DNA from: an uncultured Actinomycetota bacterium
GTDB taxonomy: Bacteria; Actinomycetota; Actinomycetes; Propionibacteriales; Nocardioidaceae
Length of the DNA stretch: 64,000 nt
Direction of reading: 5' to 3'
Assembly (NCBI GenBank): GCA_963718725.1
Contig: OY970374.1
Location: 2,259,215 to 2,323,214 of the forward strand
Part shown: piece after piece, positions 1,854 through 27,993 of the stretch
Numbering within the stretch: the first letter of the stretch is position 1
Layout: each line of letters opens with the position of its first letter
Translations under genes and position numbers: made by a program
Notes under the pieces: generated by a model
The model's input: only the letters and a program-made list of their open reading frames with translations
The model's database searches: none
Told to the model about the DNA's origin: nothing

Positions 1854-3205
1854 TCCGGCGCGCGACCCACGGTGAGGAGCTCGGGCTCCCGCGCCGACGA
1901 CCCGCAGCAGCCGCCGGACGTGTCACCCGCGACGGCGGCGGGTGCGTCGAACGCGCCGGCTCCGTTGCACACCCCGGACTCGGGCAGTACGAGGTCGACC
2001 CGGTCGGCGGCCTCCAGGTCACCGTCGAGCGCGGCCACGACGGAGCGGACCTGCTCGAAGCCGGTCATGGCGAGGAAGGACGGTGCCCGGCCGTAGGACT
2101 TCATCCCGGCGAGGTACAAGCCGGGCTCGGGCTGCACCAGCTCGCGGTGCCCGTGGGGGGCCACGTCGCCGCAGCTGTGGTGGTCCGGGTGGATCTGGTC
2201 GGCGAGCACCCGTGGCGACCCGAGGGCCGGGTCGAGGTCCAGCCGGACCTCCGACAGGAACCGGAGGTCGGGCCGGAACCCGGTCACGACCACGACCTCG
2301 TCGACGTCGCGGACCTCCTGACCGGCCATCGACACGACCGTCACGCGCCCGTCGGGCTGCGGCCGGACCTGGCCCGAGCGGAAGCCCGTCACCGTGGTGA
2401 CCACGCCACCCTCGGCTGCGTCGCGCGCGGCCTGCCCGAGCCGCCCACGCTCGACGAGCTGGTCGTTGTCGCCGCCACCGAACGCGTCACCCACGGCCGG
2501 GCGCCGCAGCACCCACGTGACCCGGGTCCCCGGTCGCTCGGCCGCGAGCTCGGTCAGACCGACCAGCACCCCCTGCGCCGAGGCACCCTTGCCGGCGAGG
2601 AGGACGTGCTTCCCGGCGTACCGCGCCGCGACGTCGGGGTCGGCGAGGTCCGGGATGCCGTAGGCGATCCGGTCGGCGTGCTCCCGCTCGCCGAGGGCGG
2701 GGTAGCCGTCGGCGCCGAGCGGGTTCGGCTGCCGCCACGTGCCCGAGGCGTCGATGACGGCGCGCGCCACCAGCCGCTCCGCGCCCTTCTCCGTGACGAC
2801 GTGGATGGCGAACGGGTCGTCCTCGCGGCCGAGGTCGACCAGCAGGTCGCGGCTGGCGCGCCCCACACCCACGACCTCGGCGCCGTACCGGAGGCTCCCG
2901 TGGGGGTGGGCGGCGAGCAGGTCGGCGAGCGGCTGGAGGTACTGCTCACGCCACTCGCCGCCGGTCGGGTACGCGTCCTCGTCGGGCGCGCGCCAGGTCC
3001 CCGCCGCGTCGAGCAGCCGCCGGGCCGCCGGGTCGACCAGCTCGCGCCACGCGGAGAACAGCCGGACATGGGCCCACTCGCCGACGGCGGCGCCGGCCAC
3101 CGGGCCGGACTCGAGGACCACGAAGTCCAGCCGGCGCTCGGCGGCGTGAGCTGCGGCGGCGAGTCCGATGGGACCGGCGCCGATGATGGCCACGGGATGG
3201 TTCAC
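1850..3205 (-). CDS. FAD/NAD(P)-binding flavoprotein (CzcO/ArsO-like class, from recollection) with a Cys-rich C-terminal tail
   Basis: ORF 1850..3334 is trimmed to the GTG at 3203-3205 (GGAG RBS just upstream), so the protein starts VNHPVAIIGAGPIGLAAA (GxGxxG). A second dinucleotide site is LLAGKGASAQG. The tail reads GVCNG...GGCCGSS. Confidence 0.75.
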   Translation of the reverse strand: MNHPVAIIGAGPIGLAAAAHAAERRLDFVVLESGPVAGAAVGEWAHVRLFSAWRELVDPAARRLLDAAGTWRAPDEDAYPTGGEWREQYLQPLADLLAAHPHGSLRYGAEVVGVGRASRDLLVDLGREDDPFAIHVVTEKGAERLVARAVIDASGTWRQPNPLGADGYPALGEREHADRIAYGIPDLADPDVAARYAGKHVLLAGKGASAQGVLVGLTELAAERPGTRVTWVLRRPAVGDAFGGGDNDQLVERGRLGQAARDAAEGGVVTTVTGFRSGQVRPQPDGRVTVVSMAGQEVRDVDEVVVVTGFRPDLRFLSEVRLDLDPALGSPRVLADQIHPDHHSCGDVAPHGHRELVQPEPGLYLAGMKSYGRAPSFLAMTGFEQVRSVVAALDGDLEAADRVDLVLPESGVCNGAGAFDAPAAVAGDTSGGCCGSSAREPELLTVGRAPE

Positions 3206-3225
3206 GAGGATCTCCGTCCACTTTG

Positions 3226-3273
3226 ATCGACGTCGGTCGATGTAGATAGGGAACTGTATCGAGGAAGATCGAT
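3226..3273. promoter_or_regulatory. Two inverted repeats in an AT-rich divergent promoter region (candidate ArsR-type operators)
   Basis: ATCGAC-gtcg-GTCGAT lies at 3226-3241 and ATCGA-ggaaga-TCGAT at 3258-3273. Both sit in the 91-bp spacer between the flavoprotein GTG (3205) and the ArsR-GNAT ATG (3297). This is the most AT-rich stretch nearby. Confidence 0.4.
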
Positions 3274-3296
3274 GAAGACAAGGTAGACTTCGGGAC

Positions 3297-4193
3297 ATGC
3301 CCGCCACCCAGACCGCCCCGGTCCCCGCCGCCACCCGGTCGACGCTGCCGCTGATCCAGCCCGACCCCGGATCGAGCGCACTGTCGAAGGAGCAGGCCGA
3401 GGACTACGCCGAGTGGTTCGCGGTGCTGTCCGACCCGACCCGGGTGCGGCTGCTGCACGTGCTGTCGACGTCGACGTCGGGGGCCCTGAAGGTCGGTGCC
3501 CTCGCGCAGCGGCTCGGCATCAGCCAGTCGACCTGCTCCCACCACGTCGAGCTGCTCCGCAAGGTCGGCTTCGTCGTCGTCGACAAGATCGGCAACGCGT
3601 CGATGGTGTCGGTCAACGCGGCCTGCTGCACCGGCCTGCCGCACGCCGCCGACGTCATCATGGGCACCCTGGCGTCGCAACCGTGCTGCCCGACCGACCT
3701 GCCTACCGACGTCACGGTCCGCCCGGTCACCGACGGTGACCTCGATCAGGTGCTGGCGATCTACGCCGAGGGCATCGCCACCCGCAACGCCACGTTCGAG
3801 ACAAAGGTCCCGGGTGCGGAGCAGCTGCAGGCCCGCTGGCTGTCCGACCTCGCCTGGGTCGCTGTCCTCGACGACGAGGTGGTCGGGTGGACCGCAGTGA
3901 TGCCGACGTCCGGCCGGGATTGCTACGCCGGCGTCGGCGAGACCGCGGTCTACGTCGCCGAGTCCGCCCGGGGACGCGGGGTCGGGAAGGCGCTGCTCCA
4001 CACCCAGGTCAACGCGGCCGACGCCGCCGGGCTGTGGACCCTGCAGACCTCGATCTTCCCCGAGAACCGGGCCAGCCTGGCTCTCCACCGCTCCGCCGGC
4101 TACCGGACCCTCGCGGTCCGGAGCAGGATCGCTCAGCTCGACGGCGTCTGGCGCGACACCGTGCTCATGGAACGGCGCAGCGACCGCACCTGA
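3297..4193 (+). CDS. Fusion protein: ArsR/SmtB-family wHTH regulator + PAT/YwnH-type (ArsN1-like) GNAT N-acetyltransferase
   Basis: ORF track, 298 aa. The wHTH region reads DPTRVRLLHVL...ISQSTCSHHVELLRKVGF. There are vicinal Cys pairs at C110-C111 and C130-C131. A complete GNAT follows (VRPVTDGDLDQVLAIYAEGIATRNATFE..., ESARGRGVGKALL, FPENRASLALHRSAGY). Confidence 0.8.
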   Translation: MPATQTAPVPAATRSTLPLIQPDPGSSALSKEQAEDYAEWFAVLSDPTRVRLLHVLSTSTSGALKVGALAQRLGISQSTCSHHVELLRKVGFVVVDKIGNASMVSVNAACCTGLPHAADVIMGTLASQPCCPTDLPTDVTVRPVTDGDLDQVLAIYAEGIATRNATFETKVPGAEQLQARWLSDLAWVAVLDDEVVGWTAVMPTSGRDCYAGVGETAVYVAESARGRGVGKALLHTQVNAADAAGLWTLQTSIFPENRASLALHRSAGYRTLAVRSRIAQLDGVWRDTVLMERRSDRT

Positions 4194-20839: not shown

Positions 20840-21400
20840 ATGCACGCACTGGCGCCCACGGGGGTGACGATGGCTCGGGCGATGACCCGTGACGAGGACT
20901 TCTCGTCGTACATGCACGCCCGCCAGCCCAGCCTGCTGCGCACCGCCTACCTCCTGACCGGGGACCGCCACTCCGCCGAGGACCTCGTCCAGACCGCCTT
21001 CGCCAAGCTCTACCTCTCCTGGGACAAGGTCAACGACCGCGGTTCCCTCGACGGCTACGTGCGTCGGATCCTGGTCAACGAGCACAACTCGCTGTGGCGC
21101 CGCGCCTGGAAGCGCCGCGAGACGACCACCGACGAGCTGCCCGACCGTCCCCACCACGACGACCTGGACCACGGCACCGGCACCGCGCTCTGGGACCTGG
21201 TCCAGACGCTGCCCACCAAGGCCCGCGCCGTGGTCGTGCTCCGCTACTACGAGGAGCTCTCGGAAGCCGAGACCGCCGAGACGCTCGGCATCTCCGTCGG
21301 GACCGTGAAGTCCCAGGCCAGCCGCGCTCTGGCCGCGCTGCGTGACCGCGCACCCCAGACCCTGAACCCGACCCTGGACCCCCGGGAGGAGGACCGATGA
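20840..21400 (+). CDS. ECF sigma factor (SigE-family, TIGR02983-like)
   Basis: ORF track, 186 aa (GGAGG 9 nt upstream; later ATGs at 20870/20882 are possible). Region 2 is LLRTAYLLTGDRHSAEDLVQTAF. Region 4 is VVVLRYYEELSEAETAETLGISVGTVKSQASRAL. Confidence 0.85.
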   Translation: MHALAPTGVTMARAMTRDEDFSSYMHARQPSLLRTAYLLTGDRHSAEDLVQTAFAKLYLSWDKVNDRGSLDGYVRRILVNEHNSLWRRAWKRRETTTDELPDRPHHDDLDHGTGTALWDLVQTLPTKARAVVVLRYYEELSEAETAETLGISVGTVKSQASRALAALRDRAPQTLNPTLDPREEDR

Positions 21401-22647
21401 ACGACGTCCCCCACGGACTGGCGTCCGAGCTGACCCGCCAGCTCCACGCCCAGGTCGACGACTGGCACCACGCACCCCTGACCCTCGACGACGTGCAGGG
21501 CAAGGCCCGCGCCATCCGACGCCGCCGCGCTGCCGTCACCACCGGCATCGCCGCGGCCGCGGTCGTGGCCGTCCTGCTGCCCGCCGGGCTCGTCCTCGAC
21601 GACCCCGGCACCCCACGGCCCTCGCCGGCGCCCTCACCCACGGAAGCGGTCGAGCCGACGCCGAATCCCGACGGCACGTTCCCGCTGACGCTCGACGTCC
21701 CGGAGGGTGAAGTCCCGGCCACCGGCTACCTCACCCTCGACGACCAGCAGCTCGTGACGCAGGCCGGCCGGTTCGACGTGCCCGGCCACTTCGTGCAGAT
21801 CGCGCCGTACGACGGCGGCTGGGTCGGCATCCGCGCCGGGGACTCGGGGGCCTACCAGCCCACGGCCGCCCAGGTCGTAGTGCTCGACGCCGACTTCCAG
21901 GAGGTCTCCGCCGTCATCGGCGGGCCGGCCCTCGCCATCAGCGCGGACGGCAGCCGGGTTGCCTGGGTCGAGGCCCGCGGGACCGGCGACGACTGGACGG
22001 TCGTGAACGCCCCGACCGACGGCGGCGAGCCGATCCTCACTCCGACCCGGCCCCTCACCCAGGTCGAGGGCTTCCTGGCCGACGACGCCGTGGCCACGTC
22101 CCACTTCGAGAACCCCGACGACTACTACTCCTACGGACAGGCCACCCCGGAGGGCGAGTTCGACGCCATCCCGCTCGCGGGCTACCAGCGCGTCGGGGGC
22201 GTCTCCGCGACCAGTGGCCTGGCCGCGGGGCAGACGAAGTTCCTCGGCGACCGCACCTGCTCGGAGGTCCGCAACACCGACACCGCCCAGAAGCAGCTCG
22301 TCTACGAGACCTGCGACTACCAGCTCGCCGACTTCAGCCCCGACGGCCGGTGGCTGATCGGGTACGCCACCTACTACGACCTCGGCTCGCCGACGCTCGC
22401 GATCCTGGACGCCGCCACCGGCGACCCGGTGGTCGAGTACCTCAGCAGCCGCGAGCAGGCGGAAGCCGCGACGGTGCTCGCGGCGGCCTGGGAGGACGAC
22501 GACACCGTGATCGCCATGGTCGAGCAGGGCGGTCAGCAGGCCGTGCTGCGGCTCGAGGCGGACGGCACGGCGACCCGGGTCTCCGACGTGCGGGACGCCG
22601 CGATGTCGATCGAGTTCTTCCTGCCGCAGCACCTGTTCGGGCAGTGA
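21397..22647 (+). CDS. Sigma-associated membrane-anchored protein with beta-propeller-like ectodomain (putative anti-sigma/sensor)
   Basis: ORF track, 416 aa, with an ATGA overlap with the sigma gene. It has a short cytoplasmic N-terminus, an RRRR + TM (AVTTGIAAAAVVAVLLPAGLVL), a Pro-rich linker and TolB-like SPDGRWL/SADGSRVAW repeats. Confidence 0.65.
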   Translation: MNDVPHGLASELTRQLHAQVDDWHHAPLTLDDVQGKARAIRRRRAAVTTGIAAAAVVAVLLPAGLVLDDPGTPRPSPAPSPTEAVEPTPNPDGTFPLTLDVPEGEVPATGYLTLDDQQLVTQAGRFDVPGHFVQIAPYDGGWVGIRAGDSGAYQPTAAQVVVLDADFQEVSAVIGGPALAISADGSRVAWVEARGTGDDWTVVNAPTDGGEPILTPTRPLTQVEGFLADDAVATSHFENPDDYYSYGQATPEGEFDAIPLAGYQRVGGVSATSGLAAGQTKFLGDRTCSEVRNTDTAQKQLVYETCDYQLADFSPDGRWLIGYATYYDLGSPTLAILDAATGDPVVEYLSSREQAEAATVLAAAWEDDDTVIAMVEQGGQQAVLRLEADGTATRVSDVRDAAMSIEFFLPQHLFGQ

Positions 22648-22650
22648 TCG

Positions 22651-23697
22651 TCAGACCAGCACCTCGGTGACCGGCAGCGAGGAGTCGGCTGGGAGGTCGA
22701 GCGCCGACGGCGGCCGGTTCCTCGCGACCATCTCCGCGCCGAGCGCGGCGACCATCGCGCCGTTGTCGGTGCACAGCCCCGGCCGGGGCACCCGGACCCT
22801 CAGCCCGCGCGCAGCAGCGCGCTCCTCGGCCAGCGCCCGCAGCCGCGAGTTGGCCGCGACCCCGCCCCCGATCAGCAGGTCCTCGATGCCCTCGCTGACG
22901 GCCGCGTCGATCGCCTTGCGCGTCAGCACGTCGCACACGGCCTCCTGGAAGGACGCCGCGACGTCGGCCACCGGGACCGGCTCCCCCGCGCGCTCGCGCG
23001 CCTCGACCCAGCGCGCGACCGCCGTCTTGAGCCCCGAGAACGAGAAGTCGAACCGGTGCCGCTCGAGGTCGCGGCGGGAGGAGAGACCGCGGGGGAAGTC
23101 GATGGCGACGGTGCTCCCCTCGCGGGCCACGCGGTCGATGTGGGGGCCGCCGGGGAACGGCAGGCCGAGCAGCCGCGCCACCTTGTCGAACGCCTCGCCG
23201 GCCGCGTCGTCGATCGTCGCGCCGAGCGGCACGACGTCGCCCGTGACGTCGGAGACCCGCAGCAGGCTGGAGTGGCCACCCGAGACCAGCATCGCCAGGC
23301 ACGGCTCCGGCAGCGCCCCGTGCTCGAGCTGGTCCACGGCGACGTGCGCGGCGAGGTGGTTGACGCCGTAGATCGGCTTGCCGAGCCCGATTGCGAGGGC
23401 CTTGGCCGCCGCGACGCCGACGAGCAACGCGCCGGCGAGGCCGGGCCCGCTGGTCACCGCGATGGCGTCGACGTCGTACAGCTCGACGCCGGCGGTCTCG
23501 CAGGCCCGCTCGATCGTCGGCACCATCGCCTCGAGGTGGGCCCGGCTGGCGACCTCGGGCACGACTCCGCCGAACCGGGCGTGCTCCTCGACGCTGCTCG
23601 CGACCGCGTCGGCCAGCAGCGTGTGGCCCCGCACGATCCCGACACCGGTCTCGTCGCACGAGGTCTCGATGCCGAGGACGAGCGGGGCATCGGTCAT
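22651..23697 (-). CDS. tsaD: tRNA N6-adenosine threonylcarbamoyltransferase TsaD
   Basis: ORF 22651..24129 is trimmed to the ATG at 23697 (alternative 23706). Motifs are [23 protein letters not shown] and SGGHS. Confidence 0.9.
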
Positions 23698-23703
23698 GGC
23701 CGC

Positions 23704-23722
23704 CATTGTGCCGGGGACAATG
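23704..23722. promoter_or_regulatory. Inverted repeat CATTGT-N7-ACAATG between the divergent tsaD and GNAT starts
   Basis: Seen directly. It occupies most of the 30-nt gap between 23697 (tsaD ATG) and 23728 (GNAT GTG). Confidence 0.3.
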
Positions 23723-23727
23723 CTGGG

Positions 23728-24471
23728 GTGCGCGTCGTGGGGGTCTCCGAGCTCGGCCACCTGCCCTTCGTGCGGCATGCCGTCGACCCGGGCCGCGTCC
23801 TCGGGGCGTGGCGGCTCGACGAGGCGGCCGCGGTGCTGGCTCGGCGGCCGATGGCACGCGAGCTGCTGACCACGATCACCTGCTTCGGCCCGGCTCCCGA
23901 CCAGACGCGGCTGCTTGCCGCCCTGACCGCGGAGGTCGCGCCGCCGGACCGGCTCACCGTGGCCGCTCCGGTCGAGGTCGTGCCGGACGGCTGGCGGCTG
24001 CGCGAGGTGCGCCACTGGCACTGGATGCTGAGCAGCACGCCGCCGTCCGGCGAGCCGCCCGACGTGGTCGAGGTGGACGACCCCGACGAGGTGGACGCGC
24101 TGCTCGACGCGGCCGCCCCGGACTCCCACGCGCGGCCTGGGACGCCCGGGGTCGAGGCCTGGCTCGGGCTGCGCGACGGGCGCTCACTCGTGGCGGTCGG
24201 CGCCGTGGTCCGCCAGCCCGACGGGTCCGGTCACCTCCGCGCGGTGACCGTCGCGCCGCACGCGCGCGGCCGCGGGCTCGGGCGGGAGCTGAGCGTCGCC
24301 CTCACCCATCGCGCGATGCGCGGTCCGGGCGTCGCCAGCCTGGGGGTGTACGCCGACAACGAGCCGGCGCTGCGGATCTACCACGGCCTCGGCTACGAGG
24401 TCGCCCACGCGTTCACGTCGGGCCCGGTCACCGGCAGCTCGAGGACGACCGCGGTCGCACCGTCGCGGTAG
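23728..24471 (+). CDS. GNAT family N-acetyltransferase (about 247 aa, with an N-terminal accessory domain)
   Basis: ORF 23056..24471 is trimmed to the in-frame GTG at 23728, where GC3 becomes coding-like. The sequence reads ...HWHWMLS...[25 protein letters not shown]...[15 protein letters not shown]. No minus-strand frame in this gap looks coding. Confidence 0.65.
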
Positions 24472-24863
24472 TAGCGCCGCCGATGAGCCAGCTCGGTGAA
24501 CCCGGCCGCGCGGTAGAACGCGAGCGCGGCCGTGTTGTCCTCGCGCACTTCGAGCAGCAGCCGCTCGGCCCCGTCGGCCCGGGCCAGCCGGACGACCTCG
24601 GCGAGCAGCCGGGTAGCCACACCGTCTCGCCGATGGGCCGGGTCGACAGCGATCCGCTGCAGCTCGGCGACGTCACCGGCCACGCTCACCGTGACGTAGC
24701 CGGTGACCAGTCCGTCCTCTCGGGACACGAGGTAGTGGACCGTCGGCAGCTCGCCGGTGATCCCCTGCTCGACCAGCACCGCTGACCACGCGTCCGGCCC
24801 CAGCGCGACCAGCTCCAGCGCCGCGACCCCCGCCACGTCCTCGGCTGTCGCCGCCTCGATCAT
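24393..24863 (-). CDS. rimI: Ribosomal-protein-alanine N-acetyltransferase
   Basis: ORF 24393..24971 is trimmed to the ATG at 24863 (ATGA overlap with tsaB). Motifs are ELQRIAVDPAHRRDGVATRLL, NTAALAFYRAAGF and RRRYYRDG. Confidence 0.8.
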   Translation of the reverse strand: MIEAATAEDVAGVAALELVALGPDAWSAVLVEQGITGELPTVHYLVSREDGLVTGYVTVSVAGDVAELQRIAVDPAHRRDGVATRLLAEVVRLARADGAERLLLEVREDNTAALAFYRAAGFTELAHRRRYYRDGATAVVLELPVTGPDVNAWATS

Positions 24864-25537
24864 GAGTTGGTTCCTGAGGAGGGCGCCCCGCGCCCGTCTC
24901 GAACGGCCGGCTTGCGCGGCCCGGGCATCACGGCGTCGGGCCGTCGCAGGTAGAGCGGCTCGGGGTCGCACAGCTCGGCCCGTTCCTCGGCCACGGTCCG
25001 AGCCAGCCAGCCGGCACTCGGCCGGCGAGGCCCGATCGGAGTCGGGAAGTGCTCGGGGAAGAGCAGCGCGCCCTCGCCCACCACCTGCCCGTCATCAGCG
25101 AGGACGTCCGGCCGGTCGACGACCGGGCCGGTGAGCCGCTGCCCGTCCTCGTCGTAGGTCGCGAGGTAGACCTCCTTGCGTCGCGCGTCGGTCGCCACCG
25201 CGAAGTCCCCGATGACGGCCCCGGTGTCGACCGCCTCGACCGCGAGCACGTCGAGCGAGCACACGCCGTAGACGGGCAGGTCGAGCACGAAGCCGAGCGT
25301 GCGGGCGGTGACCAGCCCCACCCGCAGCCCGGTGAACGGACCGGGGCCGACCCCGACGGCGATCGCGGTGAGGTCCTGCCGCACGAGGCCGGCACCGGTG
25401 AGGGCCCGGTCGATCAGCGGCGCGAGCTGCTCGGCGTGGCGCATCGGCTGGTCGCTGTCGAGCTCGGCCACGACGTCGGTGCCGTCGTGGAGCGCCACCG
25501 TGACGGTCGGCGTGGCGGTGTCGAAGGCGAGCAGCAC
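24860..25537 (-). CDS. tsaB: tRNA threonylcarbamoyladenosine biosynthesis protein TsaB
   Basis: ORF track, 225 aa: MLLAFDTATPTVTVAL...IAVGVGPGPFTGLRVG. Confidence 0.85.
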   Translation of the reverse strand: MLLAFDTATPTVTVALHDGTDVVAELDSDQPMRHAEQLAPLIDRALTGAGLVRQDLTAIAVGVGPGPFTGLRVGLVTARTLGFVLDLPVYGVCSLDVLAVEAVDTGAVIGDFAVATDARRKEVYLATYDEDGQRLTGPVVDRPDVLADDGQVVGEGALLFPEHFPTPIGPRRPSAGWLARTVAEERAELCDPEPLYLRRPDAVMPGPRKPAVRDGRGAPSSGTNS

Positions 25538-25546
25538 GCCGTCAGG

Positions 25547-26953
25547 CTAGTCGCCGTCCGAGGACGTGCCGCGGAGCACCCGGACCAGGTGGGCGTCGAT
25601 CGCGGAGAGCCCGGCGTGCTCCTCCGCAGGGTCCCACCACGTGAGTCCGTCGACGTCGCCCCCCGGCCGCAGGTCGTCGGCGCCGGGCAGCGTAGTCCGG
25701 TAGACGGCGACCCGCTTGATCCGGCGCTGGTGGCCGTGCTGGATCGTCGCCACCCCCGCGAACCGCACCGGCCCGGGCTCACCGCCGGTGACCGCCCGGA
25801 ACTGCTCGACGACCGCGTCGCGCGGCGGCTCGTCGGCCCCGAGCCGCGCCAGCGGCAGCTCCCACTCGGCCGTGCGCAGGTTGCGGACGAGCAGCACCCG
25901 GTCGCCGTGCTCCGGCACCAGGATCGACATCGTGAGCGGTACGTCGCGGTCGAGGTCGCGCAGGTCGTCCTCCGCGCCGGTCCAGAAGTCGACCAGCAGC
26001 GTCTCACCCGGCTTCGCCGCCAGCGGCGGGCGCCGCGAGTCGGGCACCTCCAGCTCGTACCAGCGAGGTCCGACCGGGGCCATGAGCACCCGGCGCGGGT
26101 CGTGGTCCTCGGCCTCCTCGGTGTGCGCCAGGGCCCGGATCACGCGGATCTCGAGACGCGACTCCGCCAGCCCCTCGGCGATCCCCTCGCCCCACTCGAC
26201 CACGGTGACCGCGTCGTCGAGCGCCGTGTCGAGGTCGAGGTCGTCGAGCTCGTCGATCCCGCCGAGCCGGTAGGCGTCGACGTGGACCAGCGCCGGTCCG
26301 CCGACCAGGGACGGGTGGACGCGCGCGATCACGAACGTCGGGGAGGTGACCGGGCCGCGCACCTCCAGCCCTGCGCCGAGTCCCTGGGTGAACGTCGTCT
26401 TGCCGGCCCCGAGCTCACCGCTGAGGACGACCAGGTCGCCGGCGCGCAGCTGCTCGGCCAGCGACTCACCGAGGGCGCGCATGGCGTCCGCGTCGGGGAC
26501 GTCGAACAGGAACGTGTTGAGCGGGCGGCGCAGCTCGACGTTCGGCTCGTTGCGCCGTACCTCCCGGAAGCCGCGGCGCTCCCAGAAGCCGACCGTCTCG
26601 GGCAGCTCCAGCCGCGCGACGACGGTGAGGTCGTCGTAACCCTCGGCCTCGGTGACCGCTGCCTGGATCAGCCGCGCTGCGATGCCGTGTCCCTGGGCAC
26701 CCGGCAGGACCCCGAAGCGCCGGACGTACATCGTCGTGCCGACCGGGTCGAGCACCAGCCCGCCGACCGGCTCGCCGTCGAGCCTGGCGAGCAGCCCGCC
26801 CCGGTGCGAGAGCAGCTCGGCGAGCGACTCGACCGTCTCGACGAGCGTCGCCGCGGGTGGGTCGAGCGGCGGCCGGGCCGCGAAGGCCGGCCGCACCGTG
26901 TCGAGCAGCACGGCCGCGTCCGCCGGCCCGATGAGCTGGATCTCGACGGTCAT
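25547..26953 (-). CDS. tsaE: Tri-domain fusion: GNAT acetyltransferase + TsaE (t6A ATPase) + Nudix-like domain with degenerate Nudix box
   Basis: ORF 25547..28009 is trimmed to the ATG at 26953 (ATGA overlap with the hydrolase gene). It is 468 aa with no internal stop. The GNAT motif is RRFGVLPGAQGHGIAARL. TsaE motifs are GELGAGKTTFTQGL, TSPTF, DAYRL, VEWGE and VGPRW. The C-terminal WELPLARLGADEPPRDAVVEQFRAVTG aligns to the Nudix box without its catalytic residues. Confidence 0.8.
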   Translation of the reverse strand: MTVEIQLIGPADAAVLLDTVRPAFAARPPLDPPAATLVETVESLAELLSHRGGLLARLDGEPVGGLVLDPVGTTMYVRRFGVLPGAQGHGIAARLIQAAVTEAEGYDDLTVVARLELPETVGFWERRGFREVRRNEPNVELRRPLNTFLFDVPDADAMRALGESLAEQLRAGDLVVLSGELGAGKTTFTQGLGAGLEVRGPVTSPTFVIARVHPSLVGGPALVHVDAYRLGGIDELDDLDLDTALDDAVTVVEWGEGIAEGLAESRLEIRVIRALAHTEEAEDHDPRRVLMAPVGPRWYELEVPDSRRPPLAAKPGETLLVDFWTGAEDDLRDLDRDVPLTMSILVPEHGDRVLLVRNLRTAEWELPLARLGADEPPRDAVVEQFRAVTGGEPGPVRFAGVATIQHGHQRRIKRVAVYRTTLPGADDLRPGGDVDGLTWWDPAEEHAGLSAIDAHLVRVLRGTSSDGD

Positions 26954-27993
26954 CCGCCCGCCCGCTCCCGGGCCGCCGAGAACAGCCGGTCGAGCTCGGC
27001 GTTGACCTCCTCGTGCCGCTCGAGGATCACCATGTGCCCGGCGCCCTCGAGCTCGAGGAGTCGCGAGCCCGGGATGGTGGCGTGCAGCTTGCGGCTGTGG
27101 CCGACCGACGTCATCTTGTCCGCCGTGCCGCAGATGATCGAGACCGGCACGTGCGCGAGCGCCCGCACGGTCTCGAACTTGTCGAGCGAGGAGAAGTTCG
27201 GGAAGAACTCGGCGATCACCTCGAACGGCGTGGCCGACAGCATCGAGTCGACGAACTCGACGTACGACGCTGGGACGTCGTCGCCGAAGGCGAACGCGTC
27301 CGTGACGACCGACGCCACGGCCCGGCCGACCCGCCGCACGCCGTCGACGGTCCGGTGGCCGCGCGACAGCACCGCGACCGCCCGCAGGGCCAGCGCGCTG
27401 CCGAGTCCCGACGGCACGGCGGGGACGAGGACCCGGTGAGGGGCGAGGCCGCCGGCCGTGGTCGCGATCAGCCCGACGCCGACCACCCGGTCCCCGAAGA
27501 GCTCCGGGTGCTCCTCGGCCAGGGCGATGATGCCCATCCCACCCATGGAGTGCCCCACGAGCACGACCGGCCCCGGGGGGACGACCTCGTCGATCAGGCG
27601 CGCCAGGTCGCGGCCGAGCTGGTCGATGGTGGCGTGCCCGTCGGTGGACCGGCCGGAGCGGCCGTGGCTGCGCTGGTCGTAGTAGACGGCGTGGGCCAGG
27701 CCGCGGTAGCTGGCACGCTGGAAGTGCCAGCAGTCGAGGTTGAGGGCGTAGCCGTGGGCGAAGACCACCGTCAGCGGCGACCCCTCGCACGGGTCCACCT
27801 CGACGTGCAGCGGGACGCCGTCGTCGGCGACCACCGTCACGGCTGGCGACCGGAGCGAGCCGAAGTCCGTCGTGTCGCCCGCGCCGGGGCGGGCGATGAT
27901 CTGGCGCCGGCGTGCGACACCGACCGCCGTGCCGGCGACGGCGACGCCGGCCGCGGACGCGACGATCCCGACGACCTTGCCCCGGACGCTCAC
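26950..27993 (-). CDS. Alpha/beta hydrolase
   Basis: ORF track, 347 aa, GTG start (GTGA overlap with alr). It has an N-terminal TM, the nucleophile elbow GHSMGG and a C-terminal GAGHM. Confidence 0.8.
   Translation of the reverse strand: MSVRGKVVGIVASAAGVAVAGTAVGVARRRQIIARPGAGDTTDFGSLRSPAVTVVADDGVPLHVEVDPCEGSPLTVVFAHGYALNLDCWHFQRASYRGLAHAVYYDQRSHGRSGRSTDGHATIDQLGRDLARLIDEVVPPGPVVLVGHSMGGMGIIALAEEHPELFGDRVVGVGLIATTAGGLAPHRVLVPAVPSGLGSALALRAVAVLSRGHRTVDGVRRVGRAVASVVTDAFAFGDDVPASYVEFVDSMLSATPFEVIAEFFPNFSSLDKFETVRALAHVPVSIICGTADKMTSVGHSRKLHATIPGSRLLELEGAGHMVILERHEEVNAELDRLFSAARERAGG

Follow-up and report, generated by a model that had tools for sequence, protein, structure and literature searches.

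A TsaE protein with an added GNAT domain and an added, degenerate Nudix-fold domain in a subclade of Nocardioides

This report concerns a stretch of 64,000 nucleotides (64 kb; hereafter the window) from an uncultured bacterium of the Actinomycetota, family Nocardioidaceae (contig OY970374.1, positions 2,259,215 to 2,323,214), and within it a gene on the minus strand whose product joins a GNAT domain, a complete TsaE and a Nudix-fold domain in a single polypeptide. The gene is tsaE, and it lies in the canonical actinobacterial slot, that is, in the order alr, alpha/beta hydrolase gene, tsaE, tsaB, rimI and tsaD. TsaE is a subunit of the machinery that makes N6-threonylcarbamoyladenosine at position 37 of tRNA (t6A37); this synthesis is universal and is essential in most bacteria, and TsaE is its least understood subunit. 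The gene and its parts are as follows.

25547 to 26953, minus strand: whole fused gene, GNAT–TsaE–(pseudo)Nudix, 468 codons plus a TAG stop (25547–25549), the coding part being read from 26953 to 25550
26950 to 26953, minus strand: ATGA start/stop overlap with the upstream alpha/beta hydrolase gene, in the sequence ...ggcggATGAccgtc...
26519 to 26953, minus strand: GNAT domain, residues 1–145 (PF00583 on residues 48–129, Foldseek GNAT matches, pairwise alignment with the RimI of the operon)
26060 to 26518, minus strand: TsaE domain, residues 146–298, ending ...VGPRW (PF02367, TIGR00150, Foldseek)
26393 to 26419, minus strand: Walker A motif or P-loop, G179-ELGAGKT-T187, in the TsaE part
25937 to 26059, minus strand: conserved connector and N-terminal extension of the Nudix-fold domain, residues 299–339 (RPPLAxK..E.LLVDF...LD..P)
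25565 to 25936, minus strand: Nudix-fold core, residues 340–463 (AlphaFold model, Foldseek, family profile)
25781 to 25849, minus strand: degenerate Nudix box, residues 369–391, ARLGADEPPRDAVVEQFRAVTGG (column comparison with 15 box-intact family members)

The integrity of the gene is directly supported. An earlier note on this DNA, made from the letters alone, had described a single uninterrupted frame of 468 codons without giving a strand, and this frame is found on the minus strand, where its translation begins with MTVEIQLIGP and ends with RGTSSDGD. The start codon of the fused gene, ATG (26953–26951), overlaps the stop codon of the hydrolase gene, TGA (26952–26950), so the ATGA link to the upstream hydrolase gene that the same note had reported is present, and it points to translational coupling of the two genes. 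Every motif which had been quoted is also found in the fused protein, namely the acetyl-CoA motif RRFGVLPGAQGHGIAARL, the Walker A motif GELGAGKTT, TSPTF, DAYRL, VEWGE, VGPRW and the box WELPLARLGADEPPRDAVVEQFRAVTG. The guanine + cytosine (GC) fractions at the first, second and third codon positions are 0.81, 0.48 and 0.955, respectively, and they hold in each of the four segments (GNAT, TsaE, connector, Nudix) as well as in any run of 40 codons. Because the codon-position GC is constant through all four segments, the gene conceals no frameshift. In addition, the identical protein of 468 residues is recorded on two contigs, and on the one that was examined, a metagenome contig of 11.75 kb from ENA, the genes stand in the same order. 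A gene on the plus strand at 25547–26953 was considered and rejected: the interval has no start codon and lies within a shadow open reading frame (ORF) of 796 codons (25049–27439), of the kind typical of DNA with 75% GC.

The central part of the protein is a complete TsaE. PF02367 matches residues 153–273 with an E value of 6.9e-34 and 117 bits (threshold 26.6), and TIGR00150, the NCBIfam equivalog model for TsaE, gives 85.7 bits against a cut-off of 60.1. The Foldseek neighbours of the full-length AlphaFold model include TsaE, YdiB and HI0065, and among them are the TsaE chains 6n9a, 6s84, 5np9 and 1htw, some of them from TsaBDE complexes. G179, G182, G184, K185 and T186 of the P-loop are invariant in 28 GNAT–TsaE proteins, and S204-P-T-F207, D226-A-Y-R229 and E253-W-G255 are invariant in the alignments of tri-domain and GNAT–TsaE proteins. 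No second TsaE signature was found in the 64-kb window, so that the fused gene carries the sole one there.

Residues 1–145 form a GNAT domain. PF00583 (Acetyltransf_1) matches residues 48–129 with an E value of 4.6e-10 and 40.2 bits against a cut-off of 20.7, and two more Pfam GNAT models lie above threshold (among them PF13508, 38 bits against 27); in all, the domain is recognised over residues 48–134. The model of this part has a predicted local distance difference test score (pLDDT) of about 90 over residues 1–110, and its Foldseek GNAT matches, which include RimI (5isv) and Naa50, have template modelling (TM) scores of about 0.7–0.77. The acetyl-CoA pyrophosphate-binding loop Q87-G-H-G-I-A92 fits the pattern Q/R-x-x-G-x-G/A; it is conserved among the tri-domain proteins and mostly also among the two-domain ones. 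The possibility that this GNAT is itself RimI was ruled out, since it gives only 13.4 bits on TIGR01575 against a cut-off of 86.4, while the separate rimI downstream gives 89.7; in pairwise alignment the two are 27% identical (E 5e-6). NCBIfam assigns the domain to no GNAT subfamily, the best model being ArsN2 at an E value of 1.8e-4, far under its cut-off. N-terminal to the GNAT core, at residues 27–39 (about 26837–26875, minus strand), there is a motif, RPPLDPPAAxLxET, which hardly varies among the tri-domain proteins and can still be made out in most of the two-domain GNAT–TsaE proteins. In the AlphaFold model it is a loop with neither strand nor helix, and it may mark this GNAT subfamily, perhaps as a site of contact with a substrate or a partner.

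The C-terminal part requires more care, because NUDIX was absent from the Pfam matches of the full-length sequence even with a limit as loose as E≤1, and when this part was scanned alone PF00293 gave E values of 0.004–0.008 and 16.6–17.5 bits, under the gathering threshold of 21.1. Other evidence makes the assignment of the C-terminal ~170 residues to the Nudix fold firm. A family profile built from 22 members and run against the PDB sequences gave 105 distinct matches at E≤1, the best at 4.6e-6, and all 60 of the 105 that were listed are Nudix proteins. The AlphaFold2 model of residues 298–468 has a mean pLDDT of 85 and a predicted TM score (pTM) of 0.81 and displays the expected order of Nudix strands and helices; in the connector, with a pLDDT of 83–87, it predicts a beta-strand at 318–324 and a helix at 328–333. 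Foldseek with this model against the PDB gave 388 matches at E≤1e-3, of which the best 50 are all Nudix proteins, with target TM scores up to 0.72; the matches listed are BsRppH, NUDX1, YmfB, the NrtR Nudix domain, Dcp2, NudI, NudC, MutT1 and RppH. Furthermore, the homologue P0128, which is 62% identical, scores 41 bits on PF00293, and most homologues at ≤73% identity bear a precomputed PF00293 match. The three modules that the earlier note had read from the letters, with GNAT at residues 1–145, TsaE in the middle and a Nudix fold at about 340–460, are thus all borne out by profiles and structural neighbours, the Nudix score of the window copy itself being below threshold.

As to the origin of the Nudix domain, the best NCBIfam model for the family members with an intact box is TIGR02705 (YtkD/BsRppH; E 3e-13, 46–49 bits against a cut-off of 154), followed by the MutT1 and RppH models. 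The window copy has no NCBIfam match at E≤0.1, and the first two Foldseek ranks of its model are taken by BsRppH structures (the best being 4jzv), aligned over 153–156 of 171 residues. The TIGR02705 score and the Foldseek rank together point to a YtkD/BsRppH-like ancestor, as a lead and not as membership in that family.

The genes next to the fused gene are those expected around tsaE.

26950 to 27993, minus strand: alpha/beta hydrolase gene, 347 residues (PF12697, E 3.2e-24; ORF end at 26950)
24860 to 25537, minus strand: tsaB (TIGR03725, 172.9 bits against a cut-off of 69.3), starting 9 nucleotides past the stop of the fused gene
24393 to 24863, minus strand: rimI, a separate GNAT gene (TIGR01575, 89.7 bits against a cut-off of 86.4; gene call in the related locus L001)
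22651 to 23706, minus strand: tsaD (TIGR03723, 408.6 bits against a cut-off of 296.1)

The operon therefore already has a RimI of its own, as had been noted before. The identity of the fused protein as the housekeeping TsaE is supported by the equivalog score, the invariant motifs, the absence of any other TsaE signature in the window and the neighbouring tsaB, rimI and tsaD. Other observations on the neighbourhood may be added here. The alpha/beta hydrolase gene, which follows alr, keeps the same position in the relatives L001, L068 and L069, and its best NCBIfam similarities are to models of the 3-oxoadipate enol-lactonase type, far under their cut-offs. A gene of the GNAT family encoding 247 residues lies antisense between tsaD and rimI (23728–24471, plus strand), where it converges on rimI, the 3' ends of the two genes overlapping at 24393–24471; its best NCBIfam matches are MshD, CG3035 N-acetylglutamate synthase and RimI, all far under their cut-offs. 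Counting this gene, the rimI gene and the fused GNAT, the operon region encodes three GNAT domains. Just downstream of tsaD and convergent with it, a gene for a sigma factor of the extracytoplasmic function (ECF) type is found at 20840–21400 on the plus strand (Sigma70_r2/r4 in the matching metagenome contig), and it overlaps by 4 nucleotides the start of an ORF of 416 residues at 21397–22647 on the plus strand, for which no Pfam match is recorded; together they resemble a sigma/anti-sigma pair.

The phyletic distribution of the tri-domain protein was followed in genomes and in protein databases. A scan of 185,579 species, each represented by one genome, with an alignment of the C-terminal domain as the query, yielded 66 loci, and all of them belong to Nocardioides, to one Propionibacteriales metagenome-assembled genome (MAG) or to MAGs of uncultured Actinomycetota; the named carriers are N. 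aestuarii, N. taihuensis, N. koreensis, N. ungokensis and N. lianchengensis, together with several Nocardioides sp. In 58 of the 66 loci the GNAT loop, the Walker A motif and the EWEL motif share a single open frame and keep a constant spacing. In the other eight (L005, L039, L044, L048, L054, L062, L065 and L067) the locatable motifs keep the same nucleotide spacing with a shifted frame (about nucleotides 2360–3310 of each locus), which suggests indels, mostly in long-read MAGs. L044, however, comes from a complete genome, that of Nocardioides ungokensis LMG 28591 (CP059164). These eight loci could be assembly errors or cases of real pseudogenisation. Apart from such single-base frame shifts at unchanged spacing, there was neither loss nor truncation of the Nudix-like domain among the 66 species.

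The eight exceptions bear on the suspicion that the fusion is itself an artefact of sequencing or assembly, which would have run separate GNAT, tsaE and Nudix genes together, two of them or all three, as they indicate that such errors do occur in these assemblies. However, the errors in these loci break the gene and do not join genes, and the frame is continuous in 58 species-level genomes, cultured Nocardioides strains included. The identical protein on a second contig, the uniform GC at third codon positions (GC3) along the gene, the conservation of the connectors under purifying selection and the junctions devoid of start and stop codons speak in the same direction. Such an artefact is extremely improbable and is effectively excluded.

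Protein databases extend the picture. A full-length word-index search found at least 120 clusters (at 90% identity) of proteins of 448–484 residues with the same architecture, and the databases hold hundreds of copies under the plain NCBI name "TsaE [Nocard...]". Among 1.84 billion cluster representatives (50% identity), searched exhaustively, one other tri-domain sequence was met, P0128. The architecture flagged by the earlier note is thus real, and it is not unique to this genome but is the standard tsaE of a Nocardioides subclade. The Nudix-like domain was never met unfused, either in the scan of 185,579 species or in a word-index protein search with the C-terminal 171 residues alone, which gave no stand-alone relatives, its seven proteins all being fragments of the fused gene. 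Two-domain GNAT–TsaE proteins of about 295–350 residues are much more widespread, with roughly 30 clusters (50% identity) at 39–63% identity, among the names of which "Nocardioidaceae bacterium Broad-1" is the only organism given. Their genes lie in the same operon, with tsaB directly after them and then tsaD and a separate rimI, the latter always accompanying the two-domain form, and no free Nudix gene that might have been the source of the fusion was found near them in the operon loci examined. Since the two-domain form is widespread and has no Nudix gene nearby, the addition of GNAT is the older and broader event, and the addition of Nudix a later one in a single Nocardioides subclade. Other fusions of TsaE, with products of neighbouring genes of the operon, were also observed among relatives, namely P0150 (657 residues; PF00583, PF02367 and PF00814), a GNAT–TsaE–TsaB fusion, and P0252 (642 residues; PF01168, PF00842 and PF02367), an alanine racemase–TsaE fusion.

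The box of the Nudix domain is eroded in the window copy. The box EWELPLARLGADEPPRDAVVEQFRAVTGG aligns without gaps with those of box-intact relatives such as P0042 (EWELPGGLIEEGESAREAAAREFLEETGT), and the comparison with GX5EX7REUXEEXGU gives the replacements G369A, R383E, E384Q, E387A and E388V, while E375, F385 and G390, that is, three of the eight positions checked, are kept. The alignment with box-intact members agrees exactly with the replacements which had been read by eye (GG to LA, RE to EQ and EE to AV). In characterised Nudix enzymes the glutamates of the REUXEE helix are the metal ligands and the general base. All three of these glutamates (E384, E387 and E388) and Arg383 are lost in the window copy; because of this loss of catalytic and metal-binding glutamates and of the arginine, the C-terminal domain is not a canonical pyrophosphohydrolase, and by analogy with NrtR/Slr1690 its hydrolytic activity is predicted to be lost. 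No canonical Nudix box occurs anywhere in the 64-kb window.

The erosion is not a single event. Among the 58 species with an in-frame sequence, the intact box (G369, E375, R383, E384, E387, E388 and G390) is present in 15. At the four catalytic positions the other states are RR..EE (n=14), RE..AE (n=5), RE..DE (n=3), RN..AV (n=3), an assortment of RA, RV, RC and TA (n=6), and E or D followed by Q with variable residues (n=12), the last being the state of the window clade, where positions 387 and 388 vary among AV, TA, LV, RV, VA and HA. In a neighbour-joining tree built on the GNAT and TsaE columns only, these states form separate groups with the intact state scattered among them, so at least five independent erosions of the box are indicated.

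In spite of this erosion, the domain remains under selective constraint. The ratio of nonsynonymous to synonymous substitution rates (dN/dS), from pairwise Nei–Gojobori estimates that are rough in a genome of 75% GC with strong GC3 and codon bias but robust for comparison between clades, is 0.40 for the Nudix domain in the window clade and 0.44 in the box-intact clade; the corresponding values are 0.16–0.18 for TsaE, 0.21–0.32 for GNAT and 0.28–0.34 for the connector. Moreover, 35 positions after residue 298 are at least 95% conserved in the 58 sequences: W298, R308, P310, L311, A312, K314, E317, L319, L320, D322, F323, L331, L334, D335 and P339, mainly of the connector; then E363–L366, R378, G400, T403, Q405, G407, H408, R410, I412 and A416; and finally W440, L449, S450, I452, D453, H455 and L456. 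Since the constraint persists although the box has been eroded, selection appears to act on the fold and on residues outside the catalytic helix, and not on hydrolysis.

These data also bear on the view that the Nudix domain is a mere relic of a once active hydrolase, kept only since its removal would disturb the folding or the expression of TsaE. The box is eroded in 43 of the 58 species, and in several different ways; none of the other three segments has so low an amino-acid identity (0.54) or so high a dN/dS (0.40); and the window copy falls under the Pfam threshold and lacks an NCBIfam match, all as a decaying remnant would. However, its dN/dS is well below 1 and equal in the box-intact and the eroded clades, the conserved positions include whole motifs (EWEL, GxxTxQxGHxRxI, W440 and LSxIDxHL), the domain is kept in all 66 species and its fold is predicted with confidence, so that we consider the relic explanation unlikely.

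Another view is that the domain is still a hydrolase, which would use non-canonical residues such as E363, E365, E375, E383 and H408, as in some atypical Nudix-fold enzymes. E363, E365 and E375 are indeed retained, an acidic E or D replaces the former Arg383 throughout the window clade, and the invariant H408 and R410 could join the chemistry; the fold tolerates variation, and YmfB, which has an atypical mechanism, is among the Foldseek matches. Against this stand the changes E384Q, E387A and E388V with the loss of the arginine, and the free variation at positions 387 and 388 in the window clade, which would be unexpected for a new catalytic site. In addition, members of the NrtR family with perturbed signatures are barely active, and restoration of the signature increased the rate 600-fold (PMC2330246). 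Continued hydrolysis by such a route therefore seems quite unlikely.

Comparison with known systems helps to place the protein. With stand-alone TsaE (YjeE/YdiB) it shares the central 150 residues, Walker A, SPTF, DAYR, EWG and the alr–tsaE–tsaB–rimI–tsaD operon, but it is three times longer, with the extra N-terminal GNAT and the extra C-terminal Nudix-fold domain. The tRNA acetyltransferases of the TmcA/NAT10 type also have a Walker-type NTPase and a GNAT in one polypeptide and act on nucleotides of the tRNA anticodon loop; unlike the fused TsaE, they have a helicase-like ATPase in place of the TsaE P-loop, another domain order and a dedicated tRNA-binding domain, and we know of no sequence relationship between the two. 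BsRppH/YtkD (TIGR02705; 4jzt, 4jzu and 4jzv) is the best structural match of the C-terminal domain and the best NCBIfam match of its box-intact members, but the identity is about 11%, the scores of 46–49 bits are far from 154, and the window copy has neither the match nor the catalytic glutamates and is fused rather than free-standing.

The NrtR family is similar in another sense, in that some of its Nudix signatures are intact and others perturbed, and the members with a perturbed one bind ADP-ribose as an effector with negligible hydrolysis (PMC2330246). In both cases a Nudix fold is joined to a functional partner, in a family with intact and perturbed GX5EX7REUXEEXGU boxes, and the Nudix domain of S. 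oneidensis NrtR is match 5 of the C-terminal model in Foldseek. However, the partner in NrtR is a C-terminal winged helix-turn-helix (HTH) DNA-binding domain that regulates NAD genes, whereas here it is the TsaE ATPase, with no HTH found by Pfam; the nearest sequence relatives of the fused Nudix domain are of the YtkD type and not ADP-ribose pyrophosphatases, ADP-ribose binding being a feature of NrtR. The resemblance would thus be one of function, a perturbed box in a family with intact members, and not one of membership. A link between a GNAT and the t6A machinery is known from Mycobacterium tuberculosis, the RimI of which interacts with TsaD in vivo and acetylates an N-terminal peptide of TsaD, and rimI–tsaB fusions exist as well (PMC4926160). 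The GNAT described here differs from RimI and TsaB–RimI in that it is attached to TsaE and not to TsaB, lacks the Glu/Tyr pair of RimI and coexists with a bona fide RimI.

ATP hydrolysis at the TsaE–TsaD interface resets TsaB2D2 for the next threonylcarbamoyl transfer, tRNA and TsaE compete for the same cavity on TsaB2D2, and multi-turnover t6A synthesis requires the TsaBD-dependent ATPase activity of TsaE (PMC6614819). By orthology, the fused protein is expected to have the same ATPase and reset role in dependence on TsaBD. The reading that we consider probable is that it is the housekeeping TsaE combined with an acetyl-CoA-binding GNAT and a non-hydrolytic, NrtR-like Nudix module that binds a ligand or RNA. 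According to this reading, the product would be a P-loop ATPase subunit that binds to TsaB/TsaD and, whenever a round of t6A37 synthesis is over, resets the complex for threonylcarbamoyl transfer. Two accessory domains would have been added to it during evolution, GNAT first and Nudix later, and both would travel with a subunit that alternately joins and leaves the tRNA platform. Acetyl-CoA is the probable ligand of the GNAT, which may acetylate a partner within the t6A complex or close to it; acetylation of this complex, or acetyl-CoA-dependent control over it, is a reasonable hypothesis by analogy with RimI. The pseudo-Nudix domain is most likely a non-catalytic binding module, for a nucleotide-type effector, RNA or a protein partner, by which the TsaE cycle might be modulated or targeted, and an RNA end or a nucleotide is a plausible ligand in view of its YtkD-like ancestry.

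Several points weigh against this reading. The position of the domains relative to each other and their fit with docking to TsaBD are left undefined by the full-length AlphaFold model, which has low confidence at TsaE residues 255–321 and a pTM of 0.49. With a dN/dS of 0.40 the Nudix domain exceeds the other three segments (TsaE has 0.16), so that the constraint on it is only moderate, and the estimates are rough for the reasons of base composition given above. Moreover, the fused GNAT has V112 and W124 at the positions which we take to lie opposite the catalytic Glu and Tyr of RimI, so it may be a binding module only; W is the majority residue at position 124 in the wider GNAT–TsaE family, with Y in a few members. 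GNATs, on the other hand, vary in their catalytic residues.

A more specific proposal is that this TsaE is a metabolic sensor or effector, in which the pseudo-Nudix domain would bind ADP-ribose, ApnA, a CoA-type signal or an RNA or tRNA end, the GNAT would bind acetyl-CoA and acetylate some component at the TsaBD–tRNA platform, be it TsaD, TsaB, a nascent protein or even tRNA, and the ATP-driven reset step would be gated by the acetyl-CoA or nucleotide status of the cell. We regard this as rather unlikely in its full form. If it were true, the GNAT–TsaE fusion would serve as a "Rosetta stone" for the conservation of rimI inside tsaE–tsaB–tsaD operons.

No paper that describes or characterises a TsaE–Nudix or a GNAT–TsaE fusion was found in a literature search that included reviews on the diversity of t6A enzymes, in agreement with the earlier note, in which the architecture was not recognised as described. 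The tri-domain arrangement is genuine, restricted to a single clade and unstudied; it represents a variant rather than a new kind of system. Each domain comes from a well-known superfamily and the operon is a textbook one; what is new is a TsaE with two accessory domains, one of which is a pseudoenzyme. To a specialist in t6A or in Nudix proteins the finding would be noteworthy rather than startling.

Its meaning for the family is nevertheless of several kinds. The annotation "TsaE" hides two-thirds of the fused protein. rimI is embedded in tsaE–tsaB–tsaD operons in about a fifth of bacteria, without explanation (PMC4926160), and the tri-domain and two-domain proteins, in which a GNAT is covalently tied to TsaE, offer a tractable test case for the link between GNATs and t6A. 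The C-terminal domain, in turn, is a natural example of a Nudix enzyme becoming a pseudoenzyme, with intact and eroded versions in sister lineages under similar constraint, and this natural series from Nudix to pseudo-Nudix would be useful for the study of how catalytic folds are re-used as binding modules.

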